A stretch of DNA of 64,000 bases, from the NCBI GenBank assembly GCA_902799835.1, contig CADCCF010000005.1, positions 193,722 through 257,721 on the forward strand, given 5' to 3'. This document shows, piece by piece, positions 688-19,621 of the stretch; position 1 is the stretch's first letter; each line of letters opens with the position of its first letter. Origin of the DNA: an uncultured Pseudomonadota bacterium. GTDB taxonomy: Bacteria > Pseudomonadota > Alphaproteobacteria > RF32 > CAG-239. The notes beneath the pieces are model-generated. The model had not been told where the DNA came from, did no database searches, and saw nothing but the letters and a program-made list of their open reading frames with translations. Both the position numbers and the translations under genes were made by a program.

Positions 688-754
688 AACCTAAAGCGCT
701 TCTTAGTTCTTAAAGATGCGCTTTTTTCATATCTGTAAAAGAAAGGATACAATC

Positions 755-2998: not shown

Positions 2999-3767
2999 AG
3001 ATACTTTAGAACCAGAAAATCAATCCCCGATGTCTGACGACAAAGGGGATTTTTTAGTACCTCCTTCGGGGTATGACAAAGAGATTGCCGAAACCTTTGC
3101 CGAATTGCCGCTGAATTGGCGTCGCTATCTTTGCGCACGTGAAGCAGAAATTGACAAAGGATTTGGTAACTTGCGCTCTCAAATCGCCATGTACAAATGG
3201 TTGGAGAATACTTATGCCGCCATTGAAGCTGAGTTGCGCAAATATGGTGTTGCTTCACAGGAAGATTGGTTGCACAAGTTGGTTGATGTTGAAAAACAGC
3301 TGCGCACCTCTCCGCAAGCCGCCATTAAGATGTTAGCCGAAAGTTATGGTGTCGGGATGCCGACTGCCGCAGCAAATAACTTAGGTCAACCATCTTACAA
3401 TATTTGGTCAACCAAAATTATCGAAAAGCAGATTCAAGATTTTGCTGATAGCTGCGATGATGCCGGCCAGCTTAAACATCCGTTTTATCAAGATGTTATT
3501 CAGGATATGTATCAGCTTCTTGCAAATCGATCAGCAACCAGTCTAGAAGAAGCCTATGATATGGCGGTTTGGCTAAACAAAAATACTCGAGCCAAAATGA
3601 TTGCTCGCAATATTGATTCCAGCCTGCAGAATAAAACTAAAGAAGCTCAAAAAGCCAAAGATGCGTCTTTTGCCGTTTCCGACAAAGCCGAACCTGACTA
3701 CAAAAATATGAGCCTGCGTGAAGAATTGGAACATCGTTTTGCCGAGTTTGGTTTTATTGATGATTAA
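2991..3767 (+). CDS. Scaffolding-like protein (258 aa, predicted alpha-helical)
   Basis: An AAGGA RBS precedes the ATG at 2991. The sequence is rich in helix-forming, charged residues. It lies between portal and capsid, the canonical scaffold position. Confidence 0.4.
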   Translation: MTKDTLEPENQSPMSDDKGDFLVPPSGYDKEIAETFAELPLNWRRYLCAREAEIDKGFGNLRSQIAMYKWLENTYAAIEAELRKYGVASQEDWLHKLVDVEKQLRTSPQAAIKMLAESYGVGMPTAAANNLGQPSYNIWSTKIIEKQIQDFADSCDDAGQLKHPFYQDVIQDMYQLLANRSATSLEEAYDMAVWLNKNTRAKMIARNIDSSLQNKTKEAQKAKDASFAVSDKAEPDYKNMSLREELEHRFAEFGFIDD

Positions 3768-3805
3768 TTTTATTGTTTTAAATTTTTTTGAAAGGAAAAA
3801 TAAAT

Positions 3806-4843
3806 ATGCCTAATGCAAATTATAATGATGTGTTTACCATGACATTGGAATCCCGTACTGCCAAAATGGCCGACAATATGTCGAAAAACAATGCCCTTTT
3901 GCGCAAGTTGCAGGAAAAAAACAATGTTCGTCCGATTTTGGGCGGTTCCAAAATTTTGGAAGAATTGGAATATGGTGAAGGTGATGTTGTTTGGTATTCC
4001 GGTTATGATACCATCAATTACACTCCCAAACAATTGTTCACTGCTGCCGAATACGCCATCAAGTTGGCCGCTGTTCCGGTAGCTATTTCCGGTGAAGATT
4101 TGTTGAAAAACTCAAGTCATGCTCAGGTAATGGACTTGTTATTAAAACGCATTAACAACGCTGAAAAAAGCATGGCTAACCAGTTGGCTTATGCCATGTA
4201 TGGCGATGGTACAGCTTCCAGCGGCAAGTCAATCGGCGGATTGAGATTATTGGTGGCTGATGATCCGACTACCGGCACAGTCGGTAACATTAACCGTGCA
4301 ACTTCAGGCAACGAATTTTGGCGCAACCAGTCTTTGAGTGTTAATGCTGTTTCCAAAGATAACATTTTGGAAAAAATGAACAACCTCTACATGGCTTGCT
4401 CGCGTGGTCATGACAAACCTGATTTGATTGTTGCCGACAACACATTTTATTCAACCTTTGAAGCTGCTTTGCAGGATGGTCAGCGTTTCTTGAATCCTAA
4501 TTTAGCTGATTCCGGATTTAGCAACTTGCGCTTTAAGGGTGCTGATGTGGTGTTTGATGGTGGACAGGGTGGTTATTGCCCGGAAAATCATATGTATTTC
4601 TTAAACACTGATTACCTCTTTTTGCGTCCTCACAAAGATCGCAATATGAAAGTTATTGATGGCAGTCGTGTTGCCGTAAACCAAGATGCAATGTACCGCA
4701 TTATCGGTTGGGCCGGCAATATGACTATGTCAAATGCTGCTTTGCAAGGCGTTTTGATAAATGTTCCGGCAGCCTCATCTGAGAGTTCAGCTTCAAATGA
4801 TAATGATTCTTCGACTGAAGGCGATACAACCGATAACGGCTAA
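3806..4843 (+). CDS. Major capsid protein candidate (345 aa) with a Ser/Asp-rich C-terminal tail
   Basis: An AAAGGAAAAA RBS precedes the ATG at 3806. Position after the scaffold and size fit a capsid protein. No motif-level confirmation is possible. Confidence 0.5.
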   Translation: MPNANYNDVFTMTLESRTAKMADNMSKNNALLRKLQEKNNVRPILGGSKILEELEYGEGDVVWYSGYDTINYTPKQLFTAAEYAIKLAAVPVAISGEDLLKNSSHAQVMDLLLKRINNAEKSMANQLAYAMYGDGTASSGKSIGGLRLLVADDPTTGTVGNINRATSGNEFWRNQSLSVNAVSKDNILEKMNNLYMACSRGHDKPDLIVADNTFYSTFEAALQDGQRFLNPNLADSGFSNLRFKGADVVFDGGQGGYCPENHMYFLNTDYLFLRPHKDRNMKVIDGSRVAVNQDAMYRIIGWAGNMTMSNAALQGVLINVPAASSESSASNDNDSSTEGDTTDNG

Positions 4844-4915
4844 TTATTGCAATATTTAACAGACAAAGGGCTGCTTTATTAAAAAGCAGTCCTTTGTCAT
4901 AATGGGAGAATTAAT

Positions 4916-5482
4916 ATGGATTTTGATACTTATCAAAAATTGATAGAGCAAAATAAAAATCATCTTGATGAAGGTGTATCAGCCAGATTTTATGATCGAG
5001 CGGTCAAAACAGGACAACTCGATAACAATGGTATTCCTAAATTCAAGGATGTTTGTTATTGCGAAATCAGAATCAAGGATAACACCACAGAGGTCTTTGA
5101 TCAGCCGGCCACTCCTGAAAAAATCGAGCGGTTTCCGGTTGAATATGCCCGTTATCAGCTATCCAAAAAACAAGCAAAGGCAGGAACGCCATTAGAGAAT
5201 TTTGCTTTTCTTTCTTTAAGCGAAATTGAAAGTTGTAAATATCATGGAATTTTCACTCTTGAAGCTTTGGCTTCATTATCGGAAGACCGTGTTCGCAATC
5301 TCAATTTGACCAAAGAGCAAAAAACCGCGCAGTGTTTTTTGGAAAACAATCGTCAGGTCAAAAGTACCGAAGAAATTGCTCAACTAAAAGATGGCTATGA
5401 ACAAAAGATAGCTTCGCTTAAAGCTGAACTTGATGATTTGAAAAACAAAATTACAACTTCTGTCAGGAGAAAGAAAAAATGA
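4916..5482 (+). CDS. Hypothetical virion protein (188 aa), possible head completion or adaptor protein
   Basis: A co-oriented ORF with a strong RBS that overlaps the next gene (ATGA). It has a C-terminal coiled coil. Confidence 0.3.
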   Translation: MDFDTYQKLIEQNKNHLDEGVSARFYDRAVKTGQLDNNGIPKFKDVCYCEIRIKDNTTEVFDQPATPEKIERFPVEYARYQLSKKQAKAGTPLENFAFLSLSEIESCKYHGIFTLEALASLSEDRVRNLNLTKEQKTAQCFLENNRQVKSTEEIAQLKDGYEQKIASLKAELDDLKNKITTSVRRKKK

Positions 5483-6189
5483 AATCAATTTTAAGCATAT
5501 GTCAGGAAGTTGCCGATATGGCGGCAGTAAAACGTCCTGAAAGTTTGTTCGCCACCAATTCAATGTCCGACAATATATTTTTGAGTGTTGCCAAATCAAC
5601 GCTCGATAGCCTATTGCGTTATGGTGATTGGCCTGAATTGATTAAGGAAGCAGTTTTACAAACTGATCCGGGACGCAAAAATTATTCTGTTGAAGAAATC
5701 TGTTATGATTTTTATTCTATGTTGCCGAATACCATTTATATCAAAGATATTCATGAAAAAGTCATCGGATCGATAGATCCGCAAACTTGGATGAAGTCAA
5801 AATATTTTTGCGATGACGGCGATTTGCTGAAATTTAAGTTGCAAAATAATCAGCTTAAATTTCTCAATTTGCCCGATTATCCGGTTAAAATAGTTTTTCA
5901 ATATCGTAGCAATTCAATATGCCTGCGTGCCAAAACAATGGAAGAAAGATCATCTATTCAATCAGATGACGACATTCCGATTTTTGATGAGTATTTGGTA
6001 AAGCTCGGAATTTTGTGGCGTTGGTTGAAACGTTCAGGGCTTGATTATGCGGAGGAATATGCTGAATACGAAGCTGAATTAAAAAAGAAATTTTCAGCTC
6101 AGTCAATATCTCAGGATATTCCGCTTGATTGTTATTGCCTTGAACCATTGGACAAAGGAGTGCGGATAAATGTTAAAGTCATACATTAA
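5479..6189 (+). CDS. Hypothetical virion protein (236 aa)
   Basis: It is translationally coupled to its neighbours and lies in the structural module. Confidence 0.3.
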   Translation: MKSILSICQEVADMAAVKRPESLFATNSMSDNIFLSVAKSTLDSLLRYGDWPELIKEAVLQTDPGRKNYSVEEICYDFYSMLPNTIYIKDIHEKVIGSIDPQTWMKSKYFCDDGDLLKFKLQNNQLKFLNLPDYPVKIVFQYRSNSICLRAKTMEERSSIQSDDDIPIFDEYLVKLGILWRWLKRSGLDYAEEYAEYEAELKKKFSAQSISQDIPLDCYCLEPLDKGVRINVKVIH

Positions 6190-7726
6190 TCGCACCGGAA
6201 AATCTTTAAGCTATACCATTGCTGCTCCGATTGGCGGACTAAATTGTCGTGATGCATATAATGTAATGCCACCTGAAGATGCTATTGTTATGGACAATTA
6301 TATTCCGCTTGATAACAAAATAGCTTTGCGTAAAGGCTATATTGATTATTATAAGAATAATCATCGTTTCTTGACTTTGGCAACCTACAAAAAGGATGAT
6401 AAACAAAGGCTTATCGGCATATCCTCAGGTAAGGCTTATAATTTGTCATCAGCATCCAATGTCAGTGTGTATGACAATCTGACTTTCAACAGTGATCGCT
6501 GTCAAACTGTTCAATACAAAGATTATCTTTATTTTATGAATGGTATTGATGTTCCCAAAGTTTATCATCTTGATGATGAAAACAATGAAACTTTTAGCGA
6601 TTGGGGGTTTCGCAATGATAATTTAACACCATCCAAGATTATTGCCGGAGGTGTTTCTAAACAATTTTTTTGGGCTTTGGAAAAAAACACTCTGCGTGTA
6701 TGGTATTCGGCTCAAGCCGGCAATATATCAGGAGATCTTAATTGTTTCGATCTAAGCAGTATCGCGCGGTTTGGCGGCCATCTTATGGCTGTATGTAATT
6801 GGACTGTTGATGGTGGTCAAGGAATAGATGATTTAACTGTGTTTATCACTTCAGAAGGCGAAGTTTTGGTTTATGATGGAACCAATCCTAATTCAGCTGA
6901 CAGTTGGTCGTTGAAAGGCAGTTATAAAATTTCACCACCGATCGGCTATCGATGCACCTTGCAATATCAAGGTGATATTATCATTATCACTGAGGATGGT
7001 TATTTGCCATTATCCAAAGTTTTACCTTTGAACGAAGCCGGTGTTTCAACTTATGCCTTTTCCGATAAGATTCGCGGACTGGTTTTGGAACGTTCGTCAT
7101 CAGGTAAAAACAAAGACGGTTGGCAGGGAGTTATTTATACTCGTGGTGGTTATGCTTTGTTTAATGTGCCGTTAAGCCAGGGTTATGAACAACATGTTGC
7201 TAATCTCAATACCGGAGCGTGGTGTCGTTTCATCGGCATTAAGGCACATTGTTGGTGTTTATTTCATGATAAATTATATTTTGGTTCTGATTATGGCGTT
7301 TGCCAGTTTGACCAGGGTTATTCCGATAATGGTATCTCAATTATCGGTGAGGTTCGTCAAGCTTATACCAATTTAGGAACTGATGTTTTGAAAAAAATTC
7401 AGTTGCTTAATCCTCGCACTGCTTCAAGCGGCAGATATGCCTTGGTTATATATACTGATGTTGATTATATTCACAGTTTGCAAAACACTTCGGAAACTTT
7501 GGGTTTTGGCGGAGTTACCAAATGGAACAAAGCACAATGGTCAAATTCTATCACCCAAGGACAAACCAAATGGCAAACATCTCGTAGCATAATTCGTTCC
7601 AATTGGATTGCCAATTCTGCCACTGGTTACAAGATTAGCGTTGTGTTTAAAACGCGCACAAGTGGTAACTTGATTGAGTGGTATGATACGGGGGTGCGCT
7701 ATGAACAAGCCTCAGGAATCATGTAG
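6170..7726 (+). CDS. Large virion structural protein (518 aa); tail tubular or adaptor candidate in a tail lacking sheath and tube genes
   Basis: The composition is beta-rich. It is the largest non-fibre protein between the head genes and the fibres. Confidence 0.3.
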   Translation: MLKSYINRTGKSLSYTIAAPIGGLNCRDAYNVMPPEDAIVMDNYIPLDNKIALRKGYIDYYKNNHRFLTLATYKKDDKQRLIGISSGKAYNLSSASNVSVYDNLTFNSDRCQTVQYKDYLYFMNGIDVPKVYHLDDENNETFSDWGFRNDNLTPSKIIAGGVSKQFFWALEKNTLRVWYSAQAGNISGDLNCFDLSSIARFGGHLMAVCNWTVDGGQGIDDLTVFITSEGEVLVYDGTNPNSADSWSLKGSYKISPPIGYRCTLQYQGDIIIITEDGYLPLSKVLPLNEAGVSTYAFSDKIRGLVLERSSSGKNKDGWQGVIYTRGGYALFNVPLSQGYEQHVANLNTGAWCRFIGIKAHCWCLFHDKLYFGSDYGVCQFDQGYSDNGISIIGEVRQAYTNLGTDVLKKIQLLNPRTASSGRYALVIYTDVDYIHSLQNTSETLGFGGVTKWNKAQWSNSITQGQTKWQTSRSIIRSNWIANSATGYKISVVFKTRTSGNLIEWYDTGVRYEQASGIM

Positions 7727-8150
7727 AATTATTTATGATTATGGACACAACATAGCTCGTTGGGTTTGTCTCAAATTGGGCTATGATGCCGATGCCATAT
7801 CCGATGGACAAGCGTTAGGTTTTGCTATCGGATCGCAATTAATCGGCGGTTTAATCTACCACAATATTCGTGAAGGGCGCGACTTGTGGTGGACAATTTA
7901 TACCATGGATAAGCGTTGGTGTTGTAAAAGAATTCTTCAAGCAATCTTCGGGCTAGCCTTTGATGTTTATAAGGTTCATCGCATCAGTATATTGGTACGA
8001 TGCGATAATGTCCCATGTCTAAAATTGGTTGAACGACTGGGATTTAAACGCGAAGGAACATTGAGAGCTTATGATGATTCCGGCACTGACAGTTATATCT
8101 ATGGAATGTTACAATCTGAAAATTTATGGAAAGGAAAAACAAATGAGTAA
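7674..8150 (+). CDS. GNAT-family N-acetyltransferase encoded inside the tail module
   Basis: The C-terminal segment LVRCDNVPCLKLVERLGFKREGTLRAYDDSGTDSYIYGML is a classic GNAT acetyl-CoA-binding and beta-strand signature of the RimJ/RimL type. Confidence 0.55.
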   Translation: MSGMIRGCAMNKPQESCRIIYDYGHNIARWVCLKLGYDADAISDGQALGFAIGSQLIGGLIYHNIREGRDLWWTIYTMDKRWCCKRILQAIFGLAFDVYKVHRISILVRCDNVPCLKLVERLGFKREGTLRAYDDSGTDSYIYGMLQSENLWKGKTNE

Positions 8151-9042
8151 AGCAATAGGAAAAGCTTTGGGAGCAGGCGGAGCTTCCACCAGTGTTTATG
8201 GTTCGGAGAGCAATATCTTAAATTATCTCAAAAATTATAACACAACCAACTATGATAATACGTTGAACAATTTGACATCTTATGCCGCCAATGCTTCACA
8301 AAATTTACCCAACATGGGAAATTATAATTTTAGTGTTGCAGCCTCAGATGGTGCCAGACAAAGAGCAGAGCAGGCAACATACAATTCTTATGCCAATTTG
8401 ATGCAGCCGACTTTTGCCAACCAAACTGATGATTTGCAAGCGCGCCTTGCCAATCAAGGATTAGCGGTTGGATCCGAAGCTTATCAAAGAGCAATGAATG
8501 ACTTACAAAACAATCAAAACAACGCCTTGAATCAGGCGGTATATCAGTCGGTGCTCAACGGACAAAACGCTTATTCACAGAGTTTGCAAGATCAAATTAA
8601 TGCAGCTTCTTTTGGCAACGCCGCACAAAGTAATTATATCAATCAGCTTCTGGCAGCCTTACAAAATTCAATTTCCGGCTATACTAATGCGATGAACCAA
8701 TATGATATTCAACATCAGGCAGACAATCGCATTGCTCAAAATCGAGCTTATAATTCGGCTGCTCAACATCAGGCCGGTAATGATTTCTTAAATTCAGCAG
8801 CCAGTGCGGCTGCCAGTGCGTTTTTAGCTTCGGATGCGCGGTTGAAAGAAAATCTTACACCAGTCGGAAAGTTAGATAACGGATTAACGGTTTATTGTTT
8901 CAATTTCAAAGGTAGTAAAGTGTTTCAAATCGGACTATTGGCCCAAGAAGTTCAAGCAGTAATGCCGGAAGCTGTTTTTGAAGGAGAAGACGGTTTCTTA
9001 AAAGTGAATTATCAATTAGCTTGCAAAATAAAGGAGAAATAA
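8143..9042 (+). CDS. Tail fibre or tailspike with a C-terminal intramolecular chaperone (peptidase S74) auto-cleavage domain
   Basis: The C-terminus reads SDARLKENLTPVGKLDNGLTVYCFNFKGSKVFQIGLLAQEVQAVMPEAVFEGEDGFLKVNYQ, matching the S74 signature (SDxRxKxNI ... AQEVQ ... P.AV ... DG). The central region is rich in Gln and Asn. Confidence 0.75.
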   Translation: MSKAIGKALGAGGASTSVYGSESNILNYLKNYNTTNYDNTLNNLTSYAANASQNLPNMGNYNFSVAASDGARQRAEQATYNSYANLMQPTFANQTDDLQARLANQGLAVGSEAYQRAMNDLQNNQNNALNQAVYQSVLNGQNAYSQSLQDQINAASFGNAAQSNYINQLLAALQNSISGYTNAMNQYDIQHQADNRIAQNRAYNSAAQHQAGNDFLNSAASAAASAFLASDARLKENLTPVGKLDNGLTVYCFNFKGSKVFQIGLLAQEVQAVMPEAVFEGEDGFLKVNYQLACKIKEK

Positions 9043-9043
9043 A

Positions 9044-9787
9044 ATGCCTTTTGACAGTGAAGGAGTATTTTCCCGTTTGCACAACTGGGAAGATGATCGC
9101 ATTAATGATATTGACATTATGTCAGATCGTCATGATGAAGAAGATGACAATTTTGCCGATGGACTGAGCCAGTGTTTGTTGCGCAATGGTCAGATTGCCA
9201 TGAGTGGAAATTTGCACATGGGAGGTTTTCAAATTAAAAGTTTAGCTGAAGGTCAAGCCAACAACGATGCAGTGAACAAAGGACAACTTAACACTGTGCA
9301 AACTACTTTGCAAAATGCCATAAATAGTGCAACAACATCAGCAAGTGTGTTTGTCGGCGATATTAAAACTTCATTACAAACTGCCAATCATGGCAACTGG
9401 CTTTTATGTAATGGACAGGCCGTGAGTCGCACAACATATGCTGACTTATTTGCTTTGTTAGGTGAAAATTTCGGTGCCGGTGACGGCTCAACAACTTTTA
9501 ATCTACCGGATTATCGCGGTAAGTTCTTGCGTGGTTTGGGTGGTGATTCCGAAACCGATATGTATACTACCCAAGCTGAGGGATTGCCTGAAATTAACAT
9601 CGGATATACTGGAACGCAAGGCAATGGTGACCCTGATAGTCCTTGGGATTCTGGTGGGGCTATGTATCCTAGAGCTTCTGAGAACATCTATCGTAGAGCA
9701 TCACAAAGTTCTGCAATATATGGAGCTTCGGAACACGTAACACCAATAAACCAAGCGATTAATTACTTTATTAGAGCAAAGGTATAA
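9044..9787 (+). CDS. Tail fibre protein with a phage tail-collar domain
   Basis: The segment GNWLLCNGQAVSRTTYADLFALLGENFGAGDGSTTFNLPDYRGKFLRGLG is the canonical tail-collar motif. Confidence 0.75.
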   Translation: MPFDSEGVFSRLHNWEDDRINDIDIMSDRHDEEDDNFADGLSQCLLRNGQIAMSGNLHMGGFQIKSLAEGQANNDAVNKGQLNTVQTTLQNAINSATTSASVFVGDIKTSLQTANHGNWLLCNGQAVSRTTYADLFALLGENFGAGDGSTTFNLPDYRGKFLRGLGGDSETDMYTTQAEGLPEINIGYTGTQGNGDPDSPWDSGGAMYPRASENIYRRASQSSAIYGASEHVTPINQAINYFIRAKV

Positions 9788-9791
9788 AATC

Positions 9792-10148
9792 ATGAGCGGA
9801 AGAGTTATCAATAATTTAATCGAAATCAGACAAGGCGACAGCTTTGCCGTGAATTTTCAAATCAAAAACAAGTGCCAACCGGCTGACTTGACCGGAGCGG
9901 TCATGACAATGCAGGTAAGAGATGAGAATAACAACCTGATGTTTACTCTTACCGGAACTGATGTTGATGTTAAAAACGGCAAAATGGCTTTGTTGTTTAC
10001 TCCAACCCAAACGAGTATTCCGGTTGGCGATTATAACACCGATATTCAAATCACCACGGCAGACGGTTCGGTTAACACTATTTTTCCGGCTGATGTTAAT
10101 CAAATCGGCACTTTTAGGATAACCGAGCAGGTAACCACGGGGGCATAA
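9792..10148 (+). CDS. Small beta-rich hypothetical tail protein (118 aa)
   Basis: It sits between the fibre genes and is translationally coupled to them. Confidence 0.3.
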   Translation: MSGRVINNLIEIRQGDSFAVNFQIKNKCQPADLTGAVMTMQVRDENNNLMFTLTGTDVDVKNGKMALLFTPTQTSIPVGDYNTDIQITTADGSVNTIFPADVNQIGTFRITEQVTTGA

Positions 10149-10149
10149 A

Positions 10150-12306
10150 ATGCAGGAAAGCAATTTTAACGTAATAATCGACACCGAAAACTATAATGCG
10201 GTGATCGGTGAAGTGGCTAAAATCGATGTCGGTCAGGCGATTAACTATATCAAATCCGGCGAGGCTGAGATTGAAAAAGCCGTTGATGACGGGATTGCTG
10301 AGTTTGATGCTAATGCAACAGCCAAAACCAACGCTTTTAATCAAAATGCCAACGACAAAACAACGGCGTTTAATAATAATGCCAGCGCAAAAACGCAGGA
10401 TTATAACGACAATGCGGTCGCCAAGACAACCACGTTTAATGACAATGCTACCGCAAAAACTTCAAGTTTTGATACTAATGTCACTAATAAGACCAACGCA
10501 TTTAATCAAAACGCTACTGACAAAACTCTCGCTTTTAATACCAATGCGGCGGAAAAACAAGCGGCTGTTGATGCCAGCGCAGTTTTGGCGGAAAGTTTTG
10601 CCAATCAATCCAAGCAATATGCCATCGGTGATCCAACCGAGCCTTTGGGCAACTCTGCCAAATATTGGGCAGAACAAGCATCATCTTCGCTCAGCGGATT
10701 AGCGACACGTGTCAACACAATCGAGGGCAAAATCCCCTCTACGGCAACTGCTAATAATCAGCTGACTGACAAATCTTATGTTGACAACGCCGATAGTAGC
10801 TTGCAACAACAAATTGATGCTATAACCGCGGCAAGCGATGTCACCGATATTGTCGGGACTTATGCCGAGCTTCAGGCTTATGACACTTCAACTTTGCAAA
10901 ACAACAATATTATTAAAGTTTTGCAAGATGAAACGCATAATAACGAAACCACTTATTATCGTTGGGTTATAACCGGCGGAGTGGGAGCTTGGGTGCTGAT
11001 TGGTGAAGAGGGGCCGTATTATACGATTGCCGCCGCTGATGCCACTTTCCAAGAAAAATTGGTTTCCGGCACAAATATTAAAACTGTAAACGGCAATTCA
11101 TTAGTCGGCTCAGGTAATGTCGATATTGATGCTTTGCCAAGTCAGACGGGGCAAGCAGGTAAGTTTTTGACCACCAACGGAAAAACCGCCAGTTGGGCAG
11201 AAGCCAGTGTCACCCCTGACAACAAGTCCATTAGCAAAAACACCTCAAACGCTTTGCAAGCAATCGGTGTCATCGACCAAAACAATCCGGCAAACGCACT
11301 GGGAGTATGGCACGGAACGCAAGCAGAATATGATGCTCTTGCCACACACGATGCCAACACGAGATATGATGTAGATGGTTATGGTGTCTTTATCGGCGAT
11401 GTTCAAATCGCTGCAGGAAGTTCTCAGCTTAACAATCCATTTTCTCTGCTCGATTACAAATATTCAGAGTATGAGTTAAGTAACGCAAGCTGGCTGTTAA
11501 GTAATGGTCAATTTAATTCTGGCACAGTTTATCAATCGGTTTATAATCTTTTGTTGCAAATCTATAACGGGACTGTAACTAAGGCAGGCGTAAGCGTTAA
11601 GCTATCGACCGAAACTTATGCTGATACCGATTTTGTACTCAATACATCTGATACCACTTTCAGATTGCCGTTAAAAGTTGCTCTCGCCAGCGGTAAGGCG
11701 GTTGCAGGTAATGGTAAAATACTTGGACTAACAGACGGAAACACAGAATTTGGTCTGACACACGTTCCAAATTCCTTTTTAGGAACATCATCAAGCATTG
11801 GAACGGATTTGGGAACATCTGCTCCTACTACGTCTCCTAACCCACCAACAAATGTTGCTTATGGCATAACCACAGACGAAACCAAATCCGGTATCGAAAC
11901 CTCTGCCAATGGTCTATATCTTTACTTCTATGTCGGTGAGGTTGTTCAAGATGCCAATATCATTGCCGCCGCTGGTGTGTTGACAGATATAGTAAATTTG
12001 AAAGCTCACAGTATAGTTGAAACTTATGTCAATGGCGATTCATGGTATAGGCTTTACTCTGATGATTGGTGTGAACAAGGAGGGACTATAACCACGCATG
12101 GTTCTTCAACACAGTTTAATCAGGCATTTTTGAAAAATTTTGCAAACATTCCAAATGTTCAGATAACCTTGGAAACAACATATATGCAATCCTACTATGC
12201 AGCACATATGGGCGTCAACTCTGTTACAGTTTCTGGCTTCAACTATTACAGCGGTATGATTGGTTTATCTAAGACATTTTGGCAAGCTTGCGGATATATA
12301 AGTTAA
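10150..12306 (+). CDS. Large tail fibre or tailspike (718 aa) with eight tandem 11-residue repeats near the N-terminus
   Basis: The repeat NA[TS]AKT.AFN. occurs eight times between about nt 10312 and 10575. The distal part is Gly/Ser/Thr-rich and beta-rich. It is followed by a fibre-assembly chaperone gene. Confidence 0.55.
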   Translation: MQESNFNVIIDTENYNAVIGEVAKIDVGQAINYIKSGEAEIEKAVDDGIAEFDANATAKTNAFNQNANDKTTAFNNNASAKTQDYNDNAVAKTTTFNDNATAKTSSFDTNVTNKTNAFNQNATDKTLAFNTNAAEKQAAVDASAVLAESFANQSKQYAIGDPTEPLGNSAKYWAEQASSSLSGLATRVNTIEGKIPSTATANNQLTDKSYVDNADSSLQQQIDAITAASDVTDIVGTYAELQAYDTSTLQNNNIIKVLQDETHNNETTYYRWVITGGVGAWVLIGEEGPYYTIAAADATFQEKLVSGTNIKTVNGNSLVGSGNVDIDALPSQTGQAGKFLTTNGKTASWAEASVTPDNKSISKNTSNALQAIGVIDQNNPANALGVWHGTQAEYDALATHDANTRYDVDGYGVFIGDVQIAAGSSQLNNPFSLLDYKYSEYELSNASWLLSNGQFNSGTVYQSVYNLLLQIYNGTVTKAGVSVKLSTETYADTDFVLNTSDTTFRLPLKVALASGKAVAGNGKILGLTDGNTEFGLTHVPNSFLGTSSSIGTDLGTSAPTTSPNPPTNVAYGITTDETKSGIETSANGLYLYFYVGEVVQDANIIAAAGVLTDIVNLKAHSIVETYVNGDSWYRLYSDDWCEQGGTITTHGSSTQFNQAFLKNFANIPNVQITLETTYMQSYYAAHMGVNSVTVSGFNYYSGMIGLSKTFWQACGYIS

Positions 12307-12317
12307 GGAGAAAACCA

Positions 12318-12692
12318 ATGGAAATTAAAGTCAAATTAAACAAACCTTATACATTCAAGCAACGAGCTGATTTTATTGTCGAGAATAATCACAACAAAGG
12401 CTATGAAATTAAAGAGGTTGCTGATGGGTTAGAGGCTTGGGGTTTAACGAATGAGGAACAAGAACAAGCTGATTTGGAGAATAAGCAAAAATCTATTCGA
12501 GCTACTCGCAATAGTTATTTGCAAGCAACTGATATTTATATGCTGGTTGACTTTCCCGTCACCGATGTTGAGCGTGAAGAATATAAAGCCTATCGGCAAT
12601 ATTTAAGAGATTATACTTTAGGCGAGGATTGGTGGGAGCAAGAGCCCAAGAGTTTCTCAGAATGGAAGGAGGTGATTATCAATGATGAATAG
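12318..12692 (+). CDS. Tail fibre assembly chaperone (Tfa-like, 124 aa)
   Basis: The C-terminal segment SYLQATDIYMLVDFPVTDVEREEYKAYRQYLRDYT resembles the Tfa family signature (LL..SDW...pD......W..YRq.LRD). It lies immediately after a fibre gene. A GGAG RBS is present. Confidence 0.5.
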   Translation: MEIKVKLNKPYTFKQRADFIVENNHNKGYEIKEVADGLEAWGLTNEEQEQADLENKQKSIRATRNSYLQATDIYMLVDFPVTDVEREEYKAYRQYLRDYTLGEDWWEQEPKSFSEWKEVIINDE

Positions 12693-12879
12693 TGAAATTA
12701 TCCAGGATACCAAAGTTGTCGGTTCGGCCGCTTTTGCTTGTGCTCTTGATTATGCGCAAATTTGCAATCAAATGATAACACTTGCCATCAGCATATGTAC
12801 TTTTGTTTATGTTGCCGCCAGGGCATATCAAACAATAAAAGCTTTACGTAAACCTTTCAAAAAGAGGAGACGTAAATGA
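12682..12879 (+). CDS. Holin candidate (65 aa, one TM, highly basic C-terminus)
   Basis: A GGAGGTG RBS precedes it. It has a hydrophobic core (ITLAISICTFVYVAA) and a KKRRRK tail. It overlaps the endolysin start (ATGA). Confidence 0.45.
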   Translation: MMNSEIIQDTKVVGSAAFACALDYAQICNQMITLAISICTFVYVAARAYQTIKALRKPFKKRRRK

Positions 12880-13346
12880 TAGATTTATATACTGTTTCTC
12901 AAAGATTAAAACTTCACGAAGGGCTGCGTTTGCAGCCCTATCGTTGTATAAAGGGCAAACTTACCATCGGGGTGGGGCGTAATTTGGATGATAATCCTTT
13001 AACTCCGGAAGAAGAAAAAATTGTGGGTGATTGGCGTCATGGTATAACCAAAGAAGCTGCAATATATTTGTTGCGCAATGATATCAAATCGGTTTATCGT
13101 GATTTAAAAAAATATCTTCCCTTTTTTAAGGAGTTAGATGAAGAACGACAATATGCATTGATTGATATGGCATTTAATTTAGGTATTGTCGGTCTCCTGA
13201 AATTTCAAAAAATGTTAGCTCATATTGCTTGTGGCAATTATGAACAAGCCGCTGATGAATGCTTAAACAGTCGTTATGCCAAAATTACCGGACGTCGTGC
13301 TGAGCGTATAGCTGAAGTCATACGCCACGGAGTATTCAAGTTATGA
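12876..13346 (+). CDS. Endolysin, GH24 (T4/P22-type) lysozyme
   Basis: The N-terminal segment LKLHEGLRLQPYRCIKGKLTIGVGRNL matches the catalytic motif of GH24 lysozymes (EG.RL..Y.D..G..TIG.G). The Asp position is substituted by Cys. Confidence 0.85.
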   Translation: MIDLYTVSQRLKLHEGLRLQPYRCIKGKLTIGVGRNLDDNPLTPEEEKIVGDWRHGITKEAAIYLLRNDIKSVYRDLKKYLPFFKELDEERQYALIDMAFNLGIVGLLKFQKMLAHIACGNYEQAADECLNSRYAKITGRRAERIAEVIRHGVFKL

Positions 13347-13471
13347 GATGTCTTAAAATCGTTGTCTGGATTTTGGCAGTTATTGCGGTGGGTGTCATGT
13401 TGTGGCGCTCACCGCAATACGCTTATTCAGCGGCACAATCTTTCGTTCTTTTATTGGAGCAAAATATATGA
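13343..13471 (+). CDS. 42-aa single-TM peptide (MRCLKIVVWILAVIAVGVMLWRS...), below the ORF-track size cutoff; possible antiholin or second holin
   Basis: Its ATG overlaps the endolysin TGA (ATGA at 13343-13346). Its own TGA overlaps the Rz-like ATG (ATGA at 13468-13471). It has a strong hydrophobic helix. Confidence 0.3.
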   Translation: MRCLKIVVWILAVIAVGVMLWRSPQYAYSAAQSFVLLLEQNI

Positions 13472-13665
13472 AAGTCAGAGTATTCGTTTATGCCGGTTGT
13501 CTGCTGTTTGCCTATTATCTGGGTTATGCGCAGGCCAAAGTGCAAATAGTGGAAAAACAAGTTGAGGTAATTAAATATGTTCAAACTAAACAAAACCAAA
13601 TTTTATCTGCCCCTCCTGCTTCTAAGCTTGAGTTGCTTGAGCTCATGCGTCGCGGGAAACTATAA
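13468..13665 (+). CDS. Rz-like inner-membrane spanin (65 aa): N-terminal TM plus coiled coil
   Basis: It begins MKVRVFVYAGCLLFAYYLGYA (TM) and continues with a charged helical segment. An Rz1-like lipoprotein ORF is embedded in its +1 frame. Confidence 0.45.
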   Translation: MKVRVFVYAGCLLFAYYLGYAQAKVQIVEKQVEVIKYVQTKQNQILSAPPASKLELLELMRRGKL

Positions 13666-13798
13666 TTATTGTCCGACTTATCCAAATGCTGGCGAAAAAG
13701 TTGCGCAAAGTATTGAACAAATCAATGCGCCGGAATTCTGGGAGTGGTTGGCGCGCATCAACAAACTGCGTCAACAATTAGAACTATGTCAGAAATAA
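13577..13798 (+). CDS. Rz1-like outer-membrane lipoprotein spanin, overlapping the Rz gene in another frame
   Basis: It has a signal peptide with lipobox LLSLSC/LSSC. A Cys-containing mature part is followed by a helical C-terminus. The embedded architecture is characteristic of Rz/Rz1 pairs. Confidence 0.5.
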   Translation: MFKLNKTKFYLPLLLLSLSCLSSCVAGNYNYCPTYPNAGEKVAQSIEQINAPEFWEWLARINKLRQQLELCQK

Positions 13799-13823
13799 TT
13801 TTTTTTATAGAAAGGAGAAAACA

Positions 13824-14015
13824 ATGGACATCCATCCTAAAAACATCTCACCGCTGGGCTACCAAACCGGTGTTGGCGGCATTGATAGTTATGGTGTTAA
13901 TCATAACGGATTTACCAATCAAGATGAGATTGCCTATCAAATGGCTCGCTCAAAACGTGAACAAGATTTGATAAAGCAATATAACGCTCAAGGTATTACT
14001 TCCAACTATCCTTAA
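13824..14015 (+). CDS. Conserved N-terminal module ORF (63 aa), MDIHPKNISPLGYQTGVGGIDSYGVNHNGF...; same frame as the next ORF, separated from it by one TAA
   Basis: A strong RBS (AAAGGAGAAAACA) precedes it. A near-identical N-module recurs at 15467. The downstream in-frame sequence still reads like protein. Confidence 0.4.
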   Translation: MDIHPKNISPLGYQTGVGGIDSYGVNHNGFTNQDEIAYQMARSKREQDLIKQYNAQGITSNYP

Positions 14016-14096
14016 ATCATACCACCAAATTTTTGGGGCAATTCCGCCAATAACTATGGTTTTGGAAATTCTAATATTTCTGCGAATATTGAGAAT

Positions 14097-14690
14097 ATGC
14101 AAAATAACACAACCCCGATACCGGTGGCGACAGCAACGCCGCAACAACAAGCTCAACAGCAACCAAAATCAAATGCTTGGAATATTGTTAAACAGCTTGG
14201 AAATAACTTTGCCGATGCAACTGAGGCCGGAGTTGTAGGTTATGCCACCGGAGCAAGTTTAGGTAATTTTGATGAGGCTATGGGCGGAGCAGCAACGGCA
14301 TTTGGAGTTGATTATAAAGGAGCAAGAGATGCCGTCCGTCAGCTTCAAAATAATTTAAGTCAGCAACATCCGTATGTTTATGGTGCAGGTGAATTTGCCG
14401 GTGCAATGACCACTCCGATGCATTTGGTAAAAGATAACACCTTCGCCAATAAAGCTTTAAATGCGGCAACAGATACCTTAAATGCTTCCACAGGCTATGC
14501 TGAAAATTGGAATGATTTTGCTACCAATTTATTGGTAAACGGAATTGCTAATATTGCAGGATTACCAATAGATAAAATTCCATATACACGTGGAGGTAGT
14601 GTCGTTGGGCGCAAATTTATCAAACAAGGGATTAATTCTGTTGCAGATAAGCTAAAAAACATATATTATGTTGATGAAAATGAAAGATAA
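14097..14690 (+). CDS. Gly/Ala-rich 197-aa protein; candidate toxin or bacteriocin-like body (function unknown)
   Basis: It has a Gln/Pro/Thr-rich N-terminus. Gly/Ala-rich hydrophobic stretches follow (VVGYATGASLGNFDEAMGGAATAFGV, YGAGEFAGAMTTPMHLV). Two small 3-TM paralogs lie directly downstream. Confidence 0.35.
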   Translation: MQNNTTPIPVATATPQQQAQQQPKSNAWNIVKQLGNNFADATEAGVVGYATGASLGNFDEAMGGAATAFGVDYKGARDAVRQLQNNLSQQHPYVYGAGEFAGAMTTPMHLVKDNTFANKALNAATDTLNASTGYAENWNDFATNLLVNGIANIAGLPIDKIPYTRGGSVVGRKFIKQGINSVADKLKNIYYVDENER

Positions 14691-14711: not shown

Positions 14712-15044
14712 ATGGAAAAAAAGGCCACAAATGGAATCATAAAGACTCTTTTTTATAAAGGAATTGATTTTGTACTTAGTGTGTTAGTTGCATTTGGAAT
14801 TGTTGCGCTGGTAGAAATACATTTTATGGCACCTTTTTTTCCTATTTTGTTCCTTTTGGATTTGTGTCTTATAGCTGGATATCCGTTGTTTTTACGATAT
14901 GTATTAAAAAAGAAATGGTTTGAATGTTGCAAAGATAAATTGTTACAGATAAAATATATATTATTACCTATATTGTTTTTAGAAATATTAGTATTGTTTG
15001 TGATTATAATATGTTATCCAAATGAAATATTGCAAGCTTCATAG
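14712..15044 (+). CDS. Small 3-TM membrane protein (110 aa), immunity-protein-like; paralog 1
   Basis: Three predicted TM helices. It shares the motif PLFLRYVLK[KR]KWFEC.KD..L.IKYILLP with the next ORF. Confidence 0.5.
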   Translation: MEKKATNGIIKTLFYKGIDFVLSVLVAFGIVALVEIHFMAPFFPILFLLDLCLIAGYPLFLRYVLKKKWFECCKDKLLQIKYILLPILFLEILVLFVIIICYPNEILQAS

Positions 15045-15071
15045 ATAAAAAACACAACAAAAAAACAGAAT

Positions 15072-15416
15072 ATGGAAAAAGAGACTATAATAAAAAGAAT
15101 AAAAAAGATAGCATCAGAAGCAATAACTGATGTTATTTGTGTATTGGTTTTATGTGGCTTGATGATTATTTTGGTATTTCATAAATTTGGCCCCCTTTTT
15201 CCTGTTCTGTTCTTGTTTGATTTTTGTTTTATGGTCGGACACCCGTTGTTTTTGCGATACGTTCTCAAACGAAAATGGTTTGAATGCACGAAAGATAATT
15301 TTTTAAGGATAAAATACATCTTGCTTCCATGGTTGATTATGGAACTTTTAGTTTTGTTATATTATCATAAGGTAACATTTTTTATCATCAAAACTGTTAT
15401 GGAAAATAGTAATTAA
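15072..15416 (+). CDS. Small 3-TM membrane protein (114 aa), immunity-protein-like; paralog 2
   Basis: A tandem duplicate of 14712-15044 with the same topology and the same conserved motif. Confidence 0.5.
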   Translation: MEKETIIKRIKKIASEAITDVICVLVLCGLMIILVFHKFGPLFPVLFLFDFCFMVGHPLFLRYVLKRKWFECTKDNFLRIKYILLPWLIMELLVLLYYHKVTFFIIKTVMENSN

Positions 15417-15466: not shown

Positions 15467-15685
15467 ATGGATATCTATCCTCAAAATATCTCGCCGTTAG
15501 GTTACCAAACCGGACAAAACGGTATCGACAGTTATGGTGTCAACCATAGCGGATTTTCTCTTAGCATCGTAATAAATATAAATAATCCAATGAGTTTCAG
15601 AAATAAAAAAAGCATTACTGATTTAACTCTCAGTAATGCTTTTTTTATATTTAGCAAATTTATTTTGACAATTTCTATATTTTAG
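15467..15685 (+). pseudogene. Orphan or truncated copy of the N-module seen at 13824; it diverges after about 30 aa and runs into a terminator hairpin
   Basis: It begins MDIYPQNISPLGYQTGQNGIDSYGVNHSGF and then loses similarity. The reading frame continues through the palindromic terminator at 15611-15642. Confidence 0.4.
15605..15647. terminator. Perfect 10-bp-stem hairpin flanked by an A-run and a T-run (bidirectional intrinsic terminator); copy 1 of a 41-nt repeat
   Basis: The sequence is aaaaaaagcattactgatttaactctcagtaatgcttttttt. An identical copy lies at 19271-19313. Confidence 0.6.
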
Positions 15686-16606: not shown

Positions 16607-16751
16607 TTACAGCAAATATCCATAATCTATTCACAACTCAAAATTGTAACAACATTATAAAAGGGAACTTATATTTCTTATTTATATTCAACCCAAGAGC
16701 TTTGTTTTTTAACAAGGCTCTTTTTTTTATAACTAACTGAAAGGAGAAAAA

Positions 16752-16877
16752 ATGAGTAAAGCAATCGGTAAAGCATTAGGTGCGGGAATAGTTGCACCTT
16801 CCGTTTATGGTACGGAAACTAATATACAAAATTACTTAAATCAATTTAATCAACCGCAAATTGACAATAATTTATGA
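16752..16877 (+). pseudogene. 41-codon leader that duplicates the N-terminus of the tail fibre at 8143; ends at an in-frame TGA
   Basis: A strong AAGGAGAAAAA RBS precedes it. Its product is MSKAIGKALGAGIVAPSVYGTETNIQNYLNQF. The tail fibre begins MSKAIGKALGAGGASTSVYGSESNILNYLKNY. The TGA at 16875-16877 is in the same frame as the GH108 ORF. Confidence 0.45.
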
Positions 16878-16886
16878 TTACAAGCA

Positions 16887-17537
16887 TTGCAAAATCAGAT
16901 GTTGCAACAGCAATCCGCGGGCGTTAATCCTTGGCAACAACAATATAATGCTTTGTTGTTACAAACTTTGCAAAATCAAATACAATTAAAGCAACAGCCA
17001 GTCGATTATTCATTATATGGAACTGATTTTAGTAAAGAATTTATCGATCAAATGCTAGGTGATAATGATTATCAACGCGCATTACAAGAATATGCAATTC
17101 CTAATGAAAAAGGTTATGTAAATAATATAAATGATCCGGGCGGAGAAACCAATATGGGAATATCTAAACGTTATCACCCTAATGAAGATATTAAAAATTT
17201 AACCAGAGAAAGAGCTAATGCTTTGTTATATAATGAAGTGTGGAATTGGAATGGTATCAACAAACTTCCTCGTGAAATAAGAGGATTTGTATTTGATCAT
17301 GGTATCAGAACAAGTCCTCAAAATGCTATTGAAACGACGCATCGAGCATTAGGAATTAATCCGGTTGGTGATATTATTGGTGATATAACATTAAATCTTC
17401 TGCAAAATACGAATTATGAGGATTTTTTACAAAAATACCAAAATCTTGTGAGAGAACAAGATAAGAATAATGCCAACTATAATTACTTTGGCAATGGTTG
17501 GAATAACAGAACAAACGGTTACCATATCTCTTATTAA
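16887..17537 (+). CDS. GH108-family (phage muramidase-like) domain protein
   Basis: The motif EKGYVNNINDPGGETNMGIS matches the GH108 catalytic signature EGGY..D..D.GG.T..GIT. The ORF tool starts it at a TTG. It is in frame with the fibre-like leader upstream. Confidence 0.55.
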   Translation: MQNQMLQQQSAGVNPWQQQYNALLLQTLQNQIQLKQQPVDYSLYGTDFSKEFIDQMLGDNDYQRALQEYAIPNEKGYVNNINDPGGETNMGISKRYHPNEDIKNLTRERANALLYNEVWNWNGINKLPREIRGFVFDHGIRTSPQNAIETTHRALGINPVGDIIGDITLNLLQNTNYEDFLQKYQNLVREQDKNNANYNYFGNGWNNRTNGYHISY

Positions 17538-17542
17538 AGTTG

Positions 17543-17566
17543 AAAAGGAGCTTTTATAAGCTCCTT
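17543..17566. terminator. Bidirectional intrinsic terminator between convergent genes
   Basis: AAGGAGCTT-TTAT-AAGCTCCTT is a perfect 9-bp stem followed by a T-run. Confidence 0.6.
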
Positions 17567-17572
17567 GTTTTT

Positions 17573-18088
17573 TTAATCTTTATAGTCTTGCAAAAATTCG
17601 TAGCTAATTAAAGTTTTTTCTACTGATTGAAGTAAATCTTTATCATATTGTTCAATAATTTCCCAAGTTTTCCCCATTGTTTCTTGATTACATATTGTTC
17701 CAGAAGGGATTTTATATTTATTTAAACAGTAAATAATACCATAAGCTGAAGTAGTAGATTTGACATAATTATGATAATCATTTATATTTTGCACAAAATT
17801 ATAATTATAAAAACTTTTTATAATATCTTCTGTTAATGCATTCATACATGTTAATCTTTCTGTCTCTTTAGAACACAAAGATAATTTTTTCTGATATTGT
17901 AACAATAAATTATAATCATTTATAATCTCTTTGATTTTTTTCTTATTGCTCCAATCATTTGAATTATAGACTCTATCAATATCAATGCCGTGATAAACTT
18001 CAGCCTCTGCATTTAAGCTCAAAGTTAAAAATATTCCTAAAATAAAAACAATTTTTTTCATATTATACCTCATCATAAATATAAGCAT
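17573..18088 (-). CDS. Secreted Cys-containing protein (171 aa); weak resemblance to LprI/DUF1311-type lysozyme-inhibitor domain
   Basis: It has a signal peptide (MKKIVFILGIFLTLSLNAEA). The mature part begins C-x8-C and the segment LSLCSKETERLTCMNALTEDIIKSFYNY recalls the DUF1311 pattern C.......E..IC...L..D..LN..Y. Confidence 0.3.
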   Translation of the reverse strand: MLIFMMRYNMKKIVFILGIFLTLSLNAEAEVYHGIDIDRVYNSNDWSNKKKIKEIINDYNLLLQYQKKLSLCSKETERLTCMNALTEDIIKSFYNYNFVQNINDYHNYVKSTTSAYGIIYCLNKYKIPSGTICNQETMGKTWEIIEQYDKDLLQSVEKTLISYEFLQDYKD

Positions 18089-18294
18089 AATAACCTAAAG
18101 CTTAAAGTCAAGGTGAAATTATCACACCAAAAAATTGCAACAATTATATAAATAGGAACTAAAAATTCATTATCAAAAACTATCCGCAGTATAGCATTAA
18201 CTTTAGGAGTAATTTTACTAATGAGAAGGTTAGGTATTTTTTGTTCGGTAAACAATTCTTACATGCCGAATACTTAAACAAAAAAAATCCTCGA

Positions 18295-18612
18295 TTATGT
18301 CGAGGATTTACTTTCAGTCGAGGAGTTATCTATCCCGTATTTCTTTAAGATCTCCGGTGCAAATATAAAATTCCCCATACCCATAAACGCCCTTATCGCT
18401 CGTGCTGGTGGACAACCAAACGTTACAAGCAAAGTTTGTTTGCTTGGGGAATATCCGACATGATTACCATTCACAATATAAGTTTGAGCATCAGGATAAC
18501 ATGTGATGGAACGAACTCCGCCCCCGGGTACGGTACAAATGTAGGGCACCATTTTTAATACCTTCACACCATAACAACCTTTCGACACAATCATTATTTC
18601 TAATTTTTTCAT
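18295..18612 (-). CDS. Small protein of unknown family, paralog A (105 aa); core motif VPYICTVPGGGVRSITCYPDA
   Basis: It is paralogous to 19322-19621. Each copy has a duplicated upstream promoter and operator region. Confidence 0.5.
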   Translation of the reverse strand: MKKLEIMIVSKGCYGVKVLKMVPYICTVPGGGVRSITCYPDAQTYIVNGNHVGYSPSKQTLLVTFGCPPARAIRAFMGMGNFIFAPEILKKYGIDNSSTESKSST

Positions 18613-19270: not shown

Positions 19271-19313
19271 CAAAAAAGCATTACTGATTTAACTCTCAGT
19301 AATGCTTTTTTTT
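19271..19313. terminator. Copy 2 of the 41-nt palindromic hairpin; bidirectional terminator
   Basis: It is identical to 15605-15647. Confidence 0.6.
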
Positions 19314-19321
19314 AGATTTCA

Positions 19322-19621
19322 TCATTTTTGGGAGGATTCAGTTATTCCATACCTCTCCAAAATCTCTTGTGAGAATTCAAACCAACCGCTTGCCACCAAT
19401 CCTTCTATTGCTTTTTTTGCATCACTACTATATGGTACAAGCAAGGTTCGTTCTCTCAAGGAATACCCGACTCTCTGTCCCCTTGCAAAAAAAGTACGAG
19501 CATCCGGGTAACATTTTATAGCACGGAGCCCACCAGCCGGTACTACACAAATGTATGGTACCTTTTTGACTTTTTCTACAAACTCGACTTTTTTTGGCTT
19601 ACTTTTTTCTTCAGTTTCCAT
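19322..19621 (-). CDS. Small protein of unknown family, paralog B (99 aa); core motif VPYICVVPAGGLRAIKCYPDA, with a Lys/Glu-rich N-terminal extension
   Basis: It is paralogous to 18295-18612. Confidence 0.5.
   Translation of the reverse strand: METEEKSKPKKVEFVEKVKKVPYICVVPAGGLRAIKCYPDARTFFARGQRVGYSLRERTLLVPYSSDAKKAIEGLVASGWFEFSQEILERYGITESSQK

Follow-up and report, generated by a model that had tools for sequence, protein, structure and literature searches.

The window considered here is a stretch of 64,000 nucleotides (nt) from the genome of an uncultured alphaproteobacterium of the RF32 lineage (contig CADCCF010000005.1). It carries at 16752–17537, past the late genes of a podovirus-like prophage, a gene that encodes a short N-terminal segment—hereafter module A—and, behind a single in-frame TGA, a GH108 muramidase domain. 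With moderate confidence, the locus is read as a dead allele of a 261-residue modular muramidase that lies in a recombining cassette and in whose intact form module A would load the enzyme onto a phage particle. The cassette appears to belong to an as yet undescribed family of enzyme/toxin cassettes whose modules are mixed and matched in gut Alphaproteobacteria. The intact protein consists of four parts: module A (~45 residues), a Gln-rich linker, a segment that runs from VDYSLYG to FSKEFID, and the GH108 domain. The cassette features the following elements, given in coordinates of the window.

16633–16751, + strand: upstream cassette boundary, part of a ~120-bp repeated intergenic element, with a terminator-like hairpin (16695–16722) and the ribosome-binding site GGAG
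16752–16874, + strand: module A, the presumed N-terminal address segment (MSKAIGKALGAG...), 41 codons ahead of the stop
16866–17003, + strand: Gln-rich helical linker with an 81-nt (27-codon) tandem duplication (repeat D5)
16875–16877, + strand: in-frame TGA, a nonsense mutation of TTA (Leu42) as judged by intact alleles, which read TTA
17004–17537, + strand: GH108 muramidase body with the VDYSLYG pre-segment, catalytic E119/D128/T133, a helical peptidoglycan-binding-like half and the stop codon
17545–17566: hairpin terminator separating the convergent GH108 and partner genes
17573–18061, − strand: partner gene for a secreted helical protein of 162 residues with four conserved Cys, a candidate inhibitor or immunity protein
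18062–18173: right cassette boundary, the same repeated intergenic element, here upstream of the partner gene

The body of the protein belongs, as judged by sequence and predicted fold, to the GH108 N-acetylmuramidases, and muramidase activity is predicted. The open reading frame (ORF) downstream of the stop matches the Pfam family Glyco_hydro_108 (PF05838) with 53.7 bits against a cut-off of 21.2 (E 3e-14), and the body matches PHROG 315, endolysin, at 2e-27. Sequence matches among solved structures are NMB1012 (2IS5/2IKB, E ~3e-11), Brucella SagA (7DNP, E 7e-10), Sen1395 and TtsA. The same four proteins are returned by Foldseek for the predicted fold, with a probability of 1.00 to 2IS5, 7DNP and 2IKB across 155–171 columns. 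The AlphaFold model of the full protein is of moderate confidence, with a mean pLDDT of 65 and values of 80–92 over most of the GH108 domain, and features the two-lobed helical fold of this family. The catalytic motif NEKGYVNNINDPGGET provides E119, D128 and T133, which are invariant in the GH108 alignment and whose spacing agrees with that of the catalytic residues Glu17/Asp26/Thr31 of SagA (PMC8334348). The window protein reads EKGY versus an EGGY-type consensus, and PF09374 is detected in relatives but not in it. The GH108 identity proposed in a first-pass annotation of this DNA is, hence, confirmed by family, sequence and fold matches together with an intact Glu-Asp-Thr triad. Neither a signal peptide nor a membrane segment is found in the GH108 protein. 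A role as the endolysin of the prophage was considered and rejected, since the prophage carries a separate set of lysis genes (holin, lysozyme and spanin) at 12682–13798.

The ATG at 16752 opens an ORF of 41 codons encoding MSKAIGKALGAGIVAPSVYGTETNIQNYLNQFNQPQIDNNL; the TGA at 16875–16877 follows, and the same frame is then open to the TAA at 17535–17537. The ORF coordinates and the Pfam match thus reproduce the arrangement first described—a 41-codon leader, a single in-frame TGA and continuation of the frame into GH108. The leader resembles the start of a Peptidase_S74 protein of 299 residues encoded at 8143–9042 (MSKAIGKALGAGGASTSVYGSESNILNYLKNYNTTNYDNTL), with 26 of 41 residues identical (63%). 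A tblastn search of the whole window with the leader yields E 1.4e-13 to 8143–8265, the second-best match having an E of 0.024. At the nucleotide level, 79 of 123 positions are identical (64%), and only 11 of the 26 shared residues are written with the same codon. The homology noted in the first-pass annotation is, therefore, real, but the near-identity it claimed is not found. Since the other 15 of the identical residues have different codons, selection has probably acted on module A at the level of the peptide, and the two copies in the window appear to be old paralogues kept alike as peptides. A recent duplication of the 5′ end of the S74 gene is rejected on the same figures—64% nucleotide identity and mostly different codons. 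Residues 1–37 of module A have an AlphaFold pLDDT below 50 and are, by prediction, disordered when alone; helices are predicted at residues 39–55 and 60–80. A Pfam scan finds no match for residues 1–41, the MuF domain (PF04233) included. The gene lies outside the structural module, downstream of the lysis cassette and three other cassettes. Its position ~3 kb outside the structural cluster, as first estimated, holds in kind, the measured distances being 3.4 kb from the final ORF of the spanin set and 4.1 kb from the final tail gene.

The TGA is a nonsense mutation, and the locus is taken as a recent pseudogene rather than a case of recoding. A protein search identified P0001, which is 96% identical to and colinear with the whole readthrough sequence over 261 residues and carries Leu at position 42; this intact allele (P0001/P0199) is encoded on 10 metagenome contigs. 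Codon 42 reads TTA in the contigs L001–L006, from which the window differs by a single T-to-G transversion. These contigs share the neighborhood of the window: the same prophage to the left, and genes for an M48 peptidase, RNase E and AmiC to the right. The TGA is found in L007 and L008 as well, and L007 is identical to the window at 100% over 17 kb. A shorter intact allele (P0198, 234 residues) has one linker unit, and its first 35 residues are those of the window leader unchanged. Within the linker repeat, Leu-stop-Leu of the first copy corresponds to Leu-Leu-Leu in the second. Of two fates first suggested for the TGA—recent pseudogene or readthrough product—the former is supported by the strain-to-strain variation, and the latter is taken up below. 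Only three codons differ from the intact allele past the stop; therefore, the inactivation is recent. The differences between the window and L001 alleles are unevenly spread: 13 of the 17 differing codons fall within codons 5–28, with a divergence of ~26% there versus 0.6% in the remainder of the gene. Because of this concentration, the leader itself appears to have been exchanged; the resident S74 gene was considered as donor of the leader variants specific to the window and rejected. The wider sample consists of 43 species-level genomes from gut or rumen, each of an uncultured alphaproteobacterium, and about seven of these species (about 16%) carry broken copies. Second lesions are present in the broken relatives L056 and L024.

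Stops and frameshifts directly behind the N-terminal module recur. L015 carries a stop (8001–8675, in the S74 slot) and L014 a frameshift (8001–8417), both of these cases coming from a word-indexed module A search that was biased to short proteins. L056 (4695–5147) carries a stop after module A and a second stop. An alternative genetic code with TGA read as Trp or Gly is rejected, since table 11 leaves ORFs of more than 1000 residues open. TGA serves as a stop, terminating one of nine long ORFs checked, and the genome code is standard.

The partner of the GH108 gene features, in its alignment, a signal peptide and four invariant Cys residues, and its AlphaFold model is all-helical at a pLDDT of 84. 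Pfam, NCBIfam and PDB contain no match to it. The partner adjoins GH108 in every context fetched and lies beside it in 35 of the 43 species-level genomes. Its standing as cognate immunity protein is that of a candidate—the gene is convergent to the GH108 gene, and its fold has no known relative. Together, the two genes form a self-contained recombining cassette of ~1.5 kb (16633–18173). Homology to L001 begins at 16656 and homology to L066, a non-prophage contig, at 16633; 16633–18173 is 90–99% identical to L066. The hairpin at 16695–16722, which L001 and L066 have as well, is located only 30 nt ahead of the start codon of GH108; the gene may, therefore, need antitermination or readthrough to be transcribed.

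The cassette occupies the end of a prophage in the window and in L001, follows directly after the terminase in L012, and elsewhere occurs at varied chromosomal sites. Cargo genes are found directly after the terminase in L014 as well as in L012. The position of the GH108 cassette differs among species, and several copies may form arrays. A genome with an empty site that would fix the boundary of the prophage was not found, and the M48, RNase E and AmiC neighbors occur in none of the 43 species loci. The GH108 gene is, hence, not simply a phage accessory gene; with its partner, it is a cassette that lies mostly outside prophages.

Assembly of the enzyme by module shuffling, as claimed in the first-pass annotation, is strongly supported by comparison of the proteins. 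The same GH108 body, at 45–90% identity, occurs behind at least five N-terminal modules: A, B, a short MuF (PF04233), D and E. The MuF-headed sister proteins are P0027, P0109 and P0112, and in P0200 module B precedes a body that shares more than 90% identity with the GH108 of the window. In the other direction, a full HMMER search of 1.84 billion representative proteins with a module A profile returned only 37 proteins, on which module A heads at least six bodies: the S74 type, GH108, a Gly-rich domain, an SAA-like domain and several unknown domains. P0160 has the Gln-rich linker in addition to module A. Module B likewise heads GH108, the Gly-rich domain, a second C-terminal domain and an SAA-like domain. 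Where N-terminal modules sit on unrelated C-terminal domains, each of these is followed by a small membrane or secreted protein of its own. The sharing of one N-terminal domain by different C-terminal domains is the pattern of polymorphic toxins. The modules (45–100 residues) and the helical partner are undescribed in Pfam, PHROGs, NCBIfam, PDB and the literature searched, and nucleotide searches against isolated phages yielded nothing close. L014, where a module subtype on a structural protein was sought, is a contig without an S74 gene.

Two side observations concern the reach of the modules. The metagenome protein P0140 features module A fused to a C-terminus resembling sigma-70 region 3/4, which may have arisen by chimeric assembly or at a junction with the gene of a sigma factor. 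The unverified viral contig L067 (MT838567.1, "Bacteriophage sp.", human faeces) consists in its 5 kb of an array of cassettes, among them module B on an SAA-like domain together with a small membrane protein, and another enzyme-like gene in two copies, each followed by a convergent secreted protein.

The link of module A to a phage particle comes from the prophage in the same window. Positions 1–13800 comprise the late genes of an Mx8/Brucella-Tb-like podovirus in the order terminase, portal (990–2771), scaffold, capsid, tubeA, tubeB (6170–7726), GNAT, S74 protein, collar fibre, BppU_N protein, fibre of 718 residues, fibre chaperone and lysis genes; the capsid protein is 48% identical to that of Mx8/Mx9. 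Two of these genes bear on module A.

7701–8150, + strand: GNAT acetyltransferase, counterpart of P22 gp14 / "IVPA" as judged by PHROG 4470 (1.6e-22) and synteny; overlaps the start of the S74 gene
8143–9042, + strand: virion protein with module A (8143–8265), a Gln/Asn/Ala-rich middle and a Peptidase_S74 self-cleaving chaperone (~8830–8976)

The chaperone domain is recognized by Peptidase_S74 (PF13884) with 40.6 bits against a cut-off of 22, and its cleavage motif is present (ASDARLKENL, motif SDARLKEN). The protein matches PHROG 6121, virion structural, at 5e-36 and PHROG 4287, DNA ejection protein, at 2e-7, and its PHROG labels are divided between virion structural, tail fibre and DNA ejection protein. 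No solved homologue of it was found. Residues ~64–297 are homologous to Tb_23, phiGT1 gp17 and Mx9 p88. In the Mx8/Tb/phiGT1 group, the N-terminus of the S74 "structural protein" is a module that can be exchanged. The order tubeA, tubeB, GNAT and S74 protein is common to phiGT1, Brucella phage Tb and Mx9; the phiGT1 record equates its GNAT with P22 gp14 and T7 IVPA, and the internal virion proteins of phiGT1 have been placed to the right of the GNAT (PMC10386132). The protein at 8143 had been called a tail fibre; synteny puts its gene after a gp14-like GNAT instead, in the slot of internal or ejection proteins, and the tail-fibre label is not warranted. The S74 domain speaks for a trimeric fibre-like protein, the gene position for a member of the ejection-protein set. 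Two or three further proteins lie between the S74 protein and the fibres of phiGT1, Tb and Mx9, and in Tb and phiGT1 one of these carries a peptidoglycan hydrolase domain (Tb_25, phiGT1 gp18). In the window, the S74 gene is followed directly by the collar fibre (junction 9042–9044), and homologues of these internal proteins were not found in the prophage; either the prophage is defective or the functions of the internal proteins are supplied elsewhere.

The GNAT gene ends 8 nt inside the S74 gene, and in L001 both are in one frame, called as a single protein of 446 residues. All module A proteins begin Met-Ser-Lys or Met-Ala-Lys. These two observations lead to the idea that the adjacent N-acetyltransferase may modify module A proteins.

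Loading onto the virion by module A would be the best-supported mechanism for the intact gene. Module A is taken as a loading tag because it heads a virion protein, because it is conserved as a peptide, because it is predicted to be disordered when alone, because it is interchangeable with the MuF domain, and because it is attached to an enzyme that otherwise lacks a route to the periplasm. MuF of SPP1 is a head protein that binds the portal (PMC5576092). The cassette recombines between the end of a podovirus prophage and chromosomal sites in gut and rumen Alphaproteobacteria. Module A would dock the muramidase in or on the phage particle, the particle would carry the tagged enzyme to the periplasm of a target cell, and the secreted partner would protect the producer and its kin, that is, lysogens; the toxicity of the enzyme and the protective function of the partner are presumed. 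The tagged muramidase may also stand in for the hydrolase-bearing internal protein that the prophage lacks. As a variant, the enzyme could co-assemble with the S74 trimer through the Gln-rich coil. In this genome, tag and enzyme are uncoupled; restart at Met50 (16899) could give no more than a cytoplasmic GH108 without leader.

Several observations weigh against loading by module A. The chief argument is the many phage-free contexts, unless loading acts in trans. Module A GH108 genes occur at non-prophage sites (L009/L036 and L066); therefore, loading, if real, must act in trans. Structural proteins of this phage do not occur within 10 kb of GH108 in any of the 43 species, the 143 flanking ORFs give housekeeping-type matches, and a pattern scan of IMG/VR found no relative of GH108. 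For modules B, D and E, no counterpart in a virion is known. The S74 protein could be head-internal, a needle or a fibre, all of these being candidates. The partner lies on the opposite strand and matches no known inhibitor fold. Lastly, the contigs that bear the TGA may all be of one strain.

A broader reading, possible and held tentatively, takes A, B, D, E and the short MuF alike as portable virion-address tags. Prophage-borne cassettes, and even chromosomal ones, would then load arbitrary cargo in trans into or onto podovirus particles, and the particles would serve as weapons that deliver proteins to neighbouring cells. The cargo would comprise the muramidase, the Gly-rich membrane-type domain and the SAA-like domains, each matched in the producer by a secreted or membrane immunity protein, and the recurrent stops after the tag would be a means of quickly disarming the cargo.

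A role of the pair in the cell itself is rather doubtful. GH108 and its partner would be a housekeeping autolysin and its regulator, like Brucella SagA/PhiA, that open the own wall for a secretion system or another envelope machine; the N-terminal modules would target the enzyme to different cellular complexes, and the resemblance to the S74 protein would be a by-product of recombination. The pair is indeed located at chromosomal non-prophage sites in most of the 43 species, and SagA (7DNP), which is among the best sequence and fold matches, has a periplasmic inhibitor, PhiA, proposed on genetic grounds (PMC8334348). However, SagA features a C-terminal transmembrane segment, and the GH108 protein has neither anchor nor signal peptide; the partner is helical instead of an MliC/PliC barrel and has no match in PDB. 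The same N-terminal modules are also found on unrelated C-terminal domains, behind each of which a small membrane or secreted protein of its own is encoded, and one of the modules is MuF, a phage-head domain. A variable genomic position, copies in arrays and about 16% of broken copies likewise speak against a housekeeping pair.

It is unlikely that the split gene is still useful, with restart at TTG 16887 or ATG 16899 giving a leaderless GH108 that acts as a second holin-dependent endolysin or wall remodeller. The downstream ORF of 212–216 residues is intact with all catalytic residues, differs from the intact allele in only three codons after the stop, and offers a restart codon seven codons past it; NCBIfam adds a weak match to a holin-associated N-acetylmuramidase (33.7 bits against a cut-off of 240). 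Yet no ribosome-binding site precedes Met50, the prophage has its own holin/lysozyme/spanin set, the three substitutions since the split are too few to speak of selection, and other broken relatives (L056, L024) have acquired second lesions. Programmed readthrough or recoding of the TGA into a low, regulated amount of full-length protein is highly improbable and, like selenocysteine insertion, was rejected: the single in-frame TGA with an open frame on both sides, the single in-frame stop of a second modular gene nearby and the recurrence of stops just past the N-terminal module in L015 and L056 would fit it, but the closest alleles read Leu, the second stop is TAA and, hence, poorly read through, the L015 and L014 cases stem from the search favoring short proteins, the stop is followed by a U, shuffled sequence folds no worse than the 80 nt around and downstream of the TGA (z +1.5), no Rfam family matches the region, and neither a conserved stop nor a downstream RNA element was found.

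Three cassettes are located downstream of the late genes in a region of lower G+C (29–33%), the last of them being the GH108 gene with its partner. Between the lysis genes and the GH108 gene, the window contains the following elements.

13824–14690, + strand: sister cassette with module B, an in-frame TAA (14013–14015) and the Gly-rich C-terminal domain (190 residues)
14712–15416, + strand: two paralogous small multi-pass membrane proteins (14712–15044 and 15072–15416), immunity-like
15467–15646, + strand: module B stub (32 codons, 15467–15562) that runs into the final 23 nt of a PHP-domain gene with its terminator, a rearrangement scar

At the TAA of the sister cassette, relatives read Gln. 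Its Gly-rich C-terminal domain sits on module A elsewhere (P0142, L014), and in L001 the same slot is occupied by an intact module B protein whose C-terminal domain is another one and behind which another membrane protein is encoded. The two membrane-protein genes are 74% identical over 163 nt (repeat D1) and look like duplicated immunity genes; in L048, a TM110 homologue follows a CTD1 fragment. The region of the junction between stub and PHP-domain gene is identical to L066 4133–4205 at 100%, and a lipoprotein gene follows the stub. An exact hairpin terminator of 41 bp occurs twice, 3.7 kb apart, in the 15467–15646 region and at 19272–19312, and the pair brackets the lipoprotein gene, GH108, the partner and two small genes. 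The stub and the 41-bp repeats could be a recombination scar or an attachment-site-like repeat. Between the partner and the M48 peptidase gene of the host lie small paralogous genes, at 18295–18612 and ~19322–19621 (both − strand), whose bodies are 68% identical and whose upstream 50 nt are 82% identical.

Among known systems, the cassettes appear to belong to the polymorphic-toxin type of architecture, the nearest described kind being the MuF family of temperate phages (Jamet et al. 2017, PMC5576092; Zhang et al. 2012, PMC3482391). Since the copy in this genome is dead, the locus by itself is ordinary; of more interest is the family. If the modules are loading tags, phage-borne polymorphic toxins would reach beyond MuF and siphoviruses, mostly Gram-positive ones, and take in Mx8-like podoviruses of uncultured gut Alphaproteobacteria. 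Their cargo would then include a wall-degrading enzyme that comes with a candidate inhibitor of a new type, and a short tag for putting foreign proteins into phage particles would be at hand.

Tailspike and tail-fibre adaptors, such as the head-binding domain of P22 gp9 and those of K1F, K1E and SP6, combine a short N-terminal docking part with interchangeable enzymatic bodies. There, the tail module encodes the bodies, which bind receptors or act as depolymerases, whereas in the cassettes described here a muramidase or a toxin-like domain takes this place and has an immunity-like gene beside it. The virion hydrolases of podoviruses (T7 gp16 type, phiGT1 gp18, Tb_25) resemble the present enzyme in that a wall-cutting domain is delivered with the particle—presumably so in the present case. 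phiGT1 and Tb encode theirs just after the S74 protein. In contrast, the enzyme of the window is a small separate protein beyond the lysis genes that shares a short N-terminal segment, has a dedicated secreted partner and lies in a cassette that also occurs free of phage.

Brucella abortus SagA/PhiA is the nearest characterized enzyme pair. SagA and Salmonella Typhi TtsA feature the same GH108 fold and triad, the setting of SagA is likewise alphaproteobacterial, and an adjacent periplasmic protein has been proposed to restrain the enzyme (PMC8334348). The comparison fails in two respects, anchor and inhibitor fold: a C-terminal transmembrane segment holds SagA in the membrane and PhiA has an MliC/PliC-like barrel, whereas the window protein has no anchor and is headed by swappable N-terminal modules, and its partner is helical without a known fold relative.

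The MuF toxins share with the cassettes a conserved N-terminal domain thought to specify transport, variable C-terminal domains and diversification by recombination. They also have a small protective gene beside the toxin and lie at prophage ends, to which the candidate partner and the position in the window and in L001 would correspond; sister proteins of the GH108 body even carry MuF (PF04233) itself. In its main text, the MuF paper of 2017 (PMC5576092) does not use the terms peptidoglycan, lysozyme and muramidase. The cassettes differ from the MuF toxins in that the 45-residue module of the window gene is unrelated to MuF and is common to a podovirus S74 virion protein, in that the partner gene is convergent, and in that most relatives lie outside recognizable prophages. 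Compared with the MuF family, new features are, hence, the tag, the association with podoviruses, a muramidase cargo with a new partner, and N-termini that vary as much as the C-termini.

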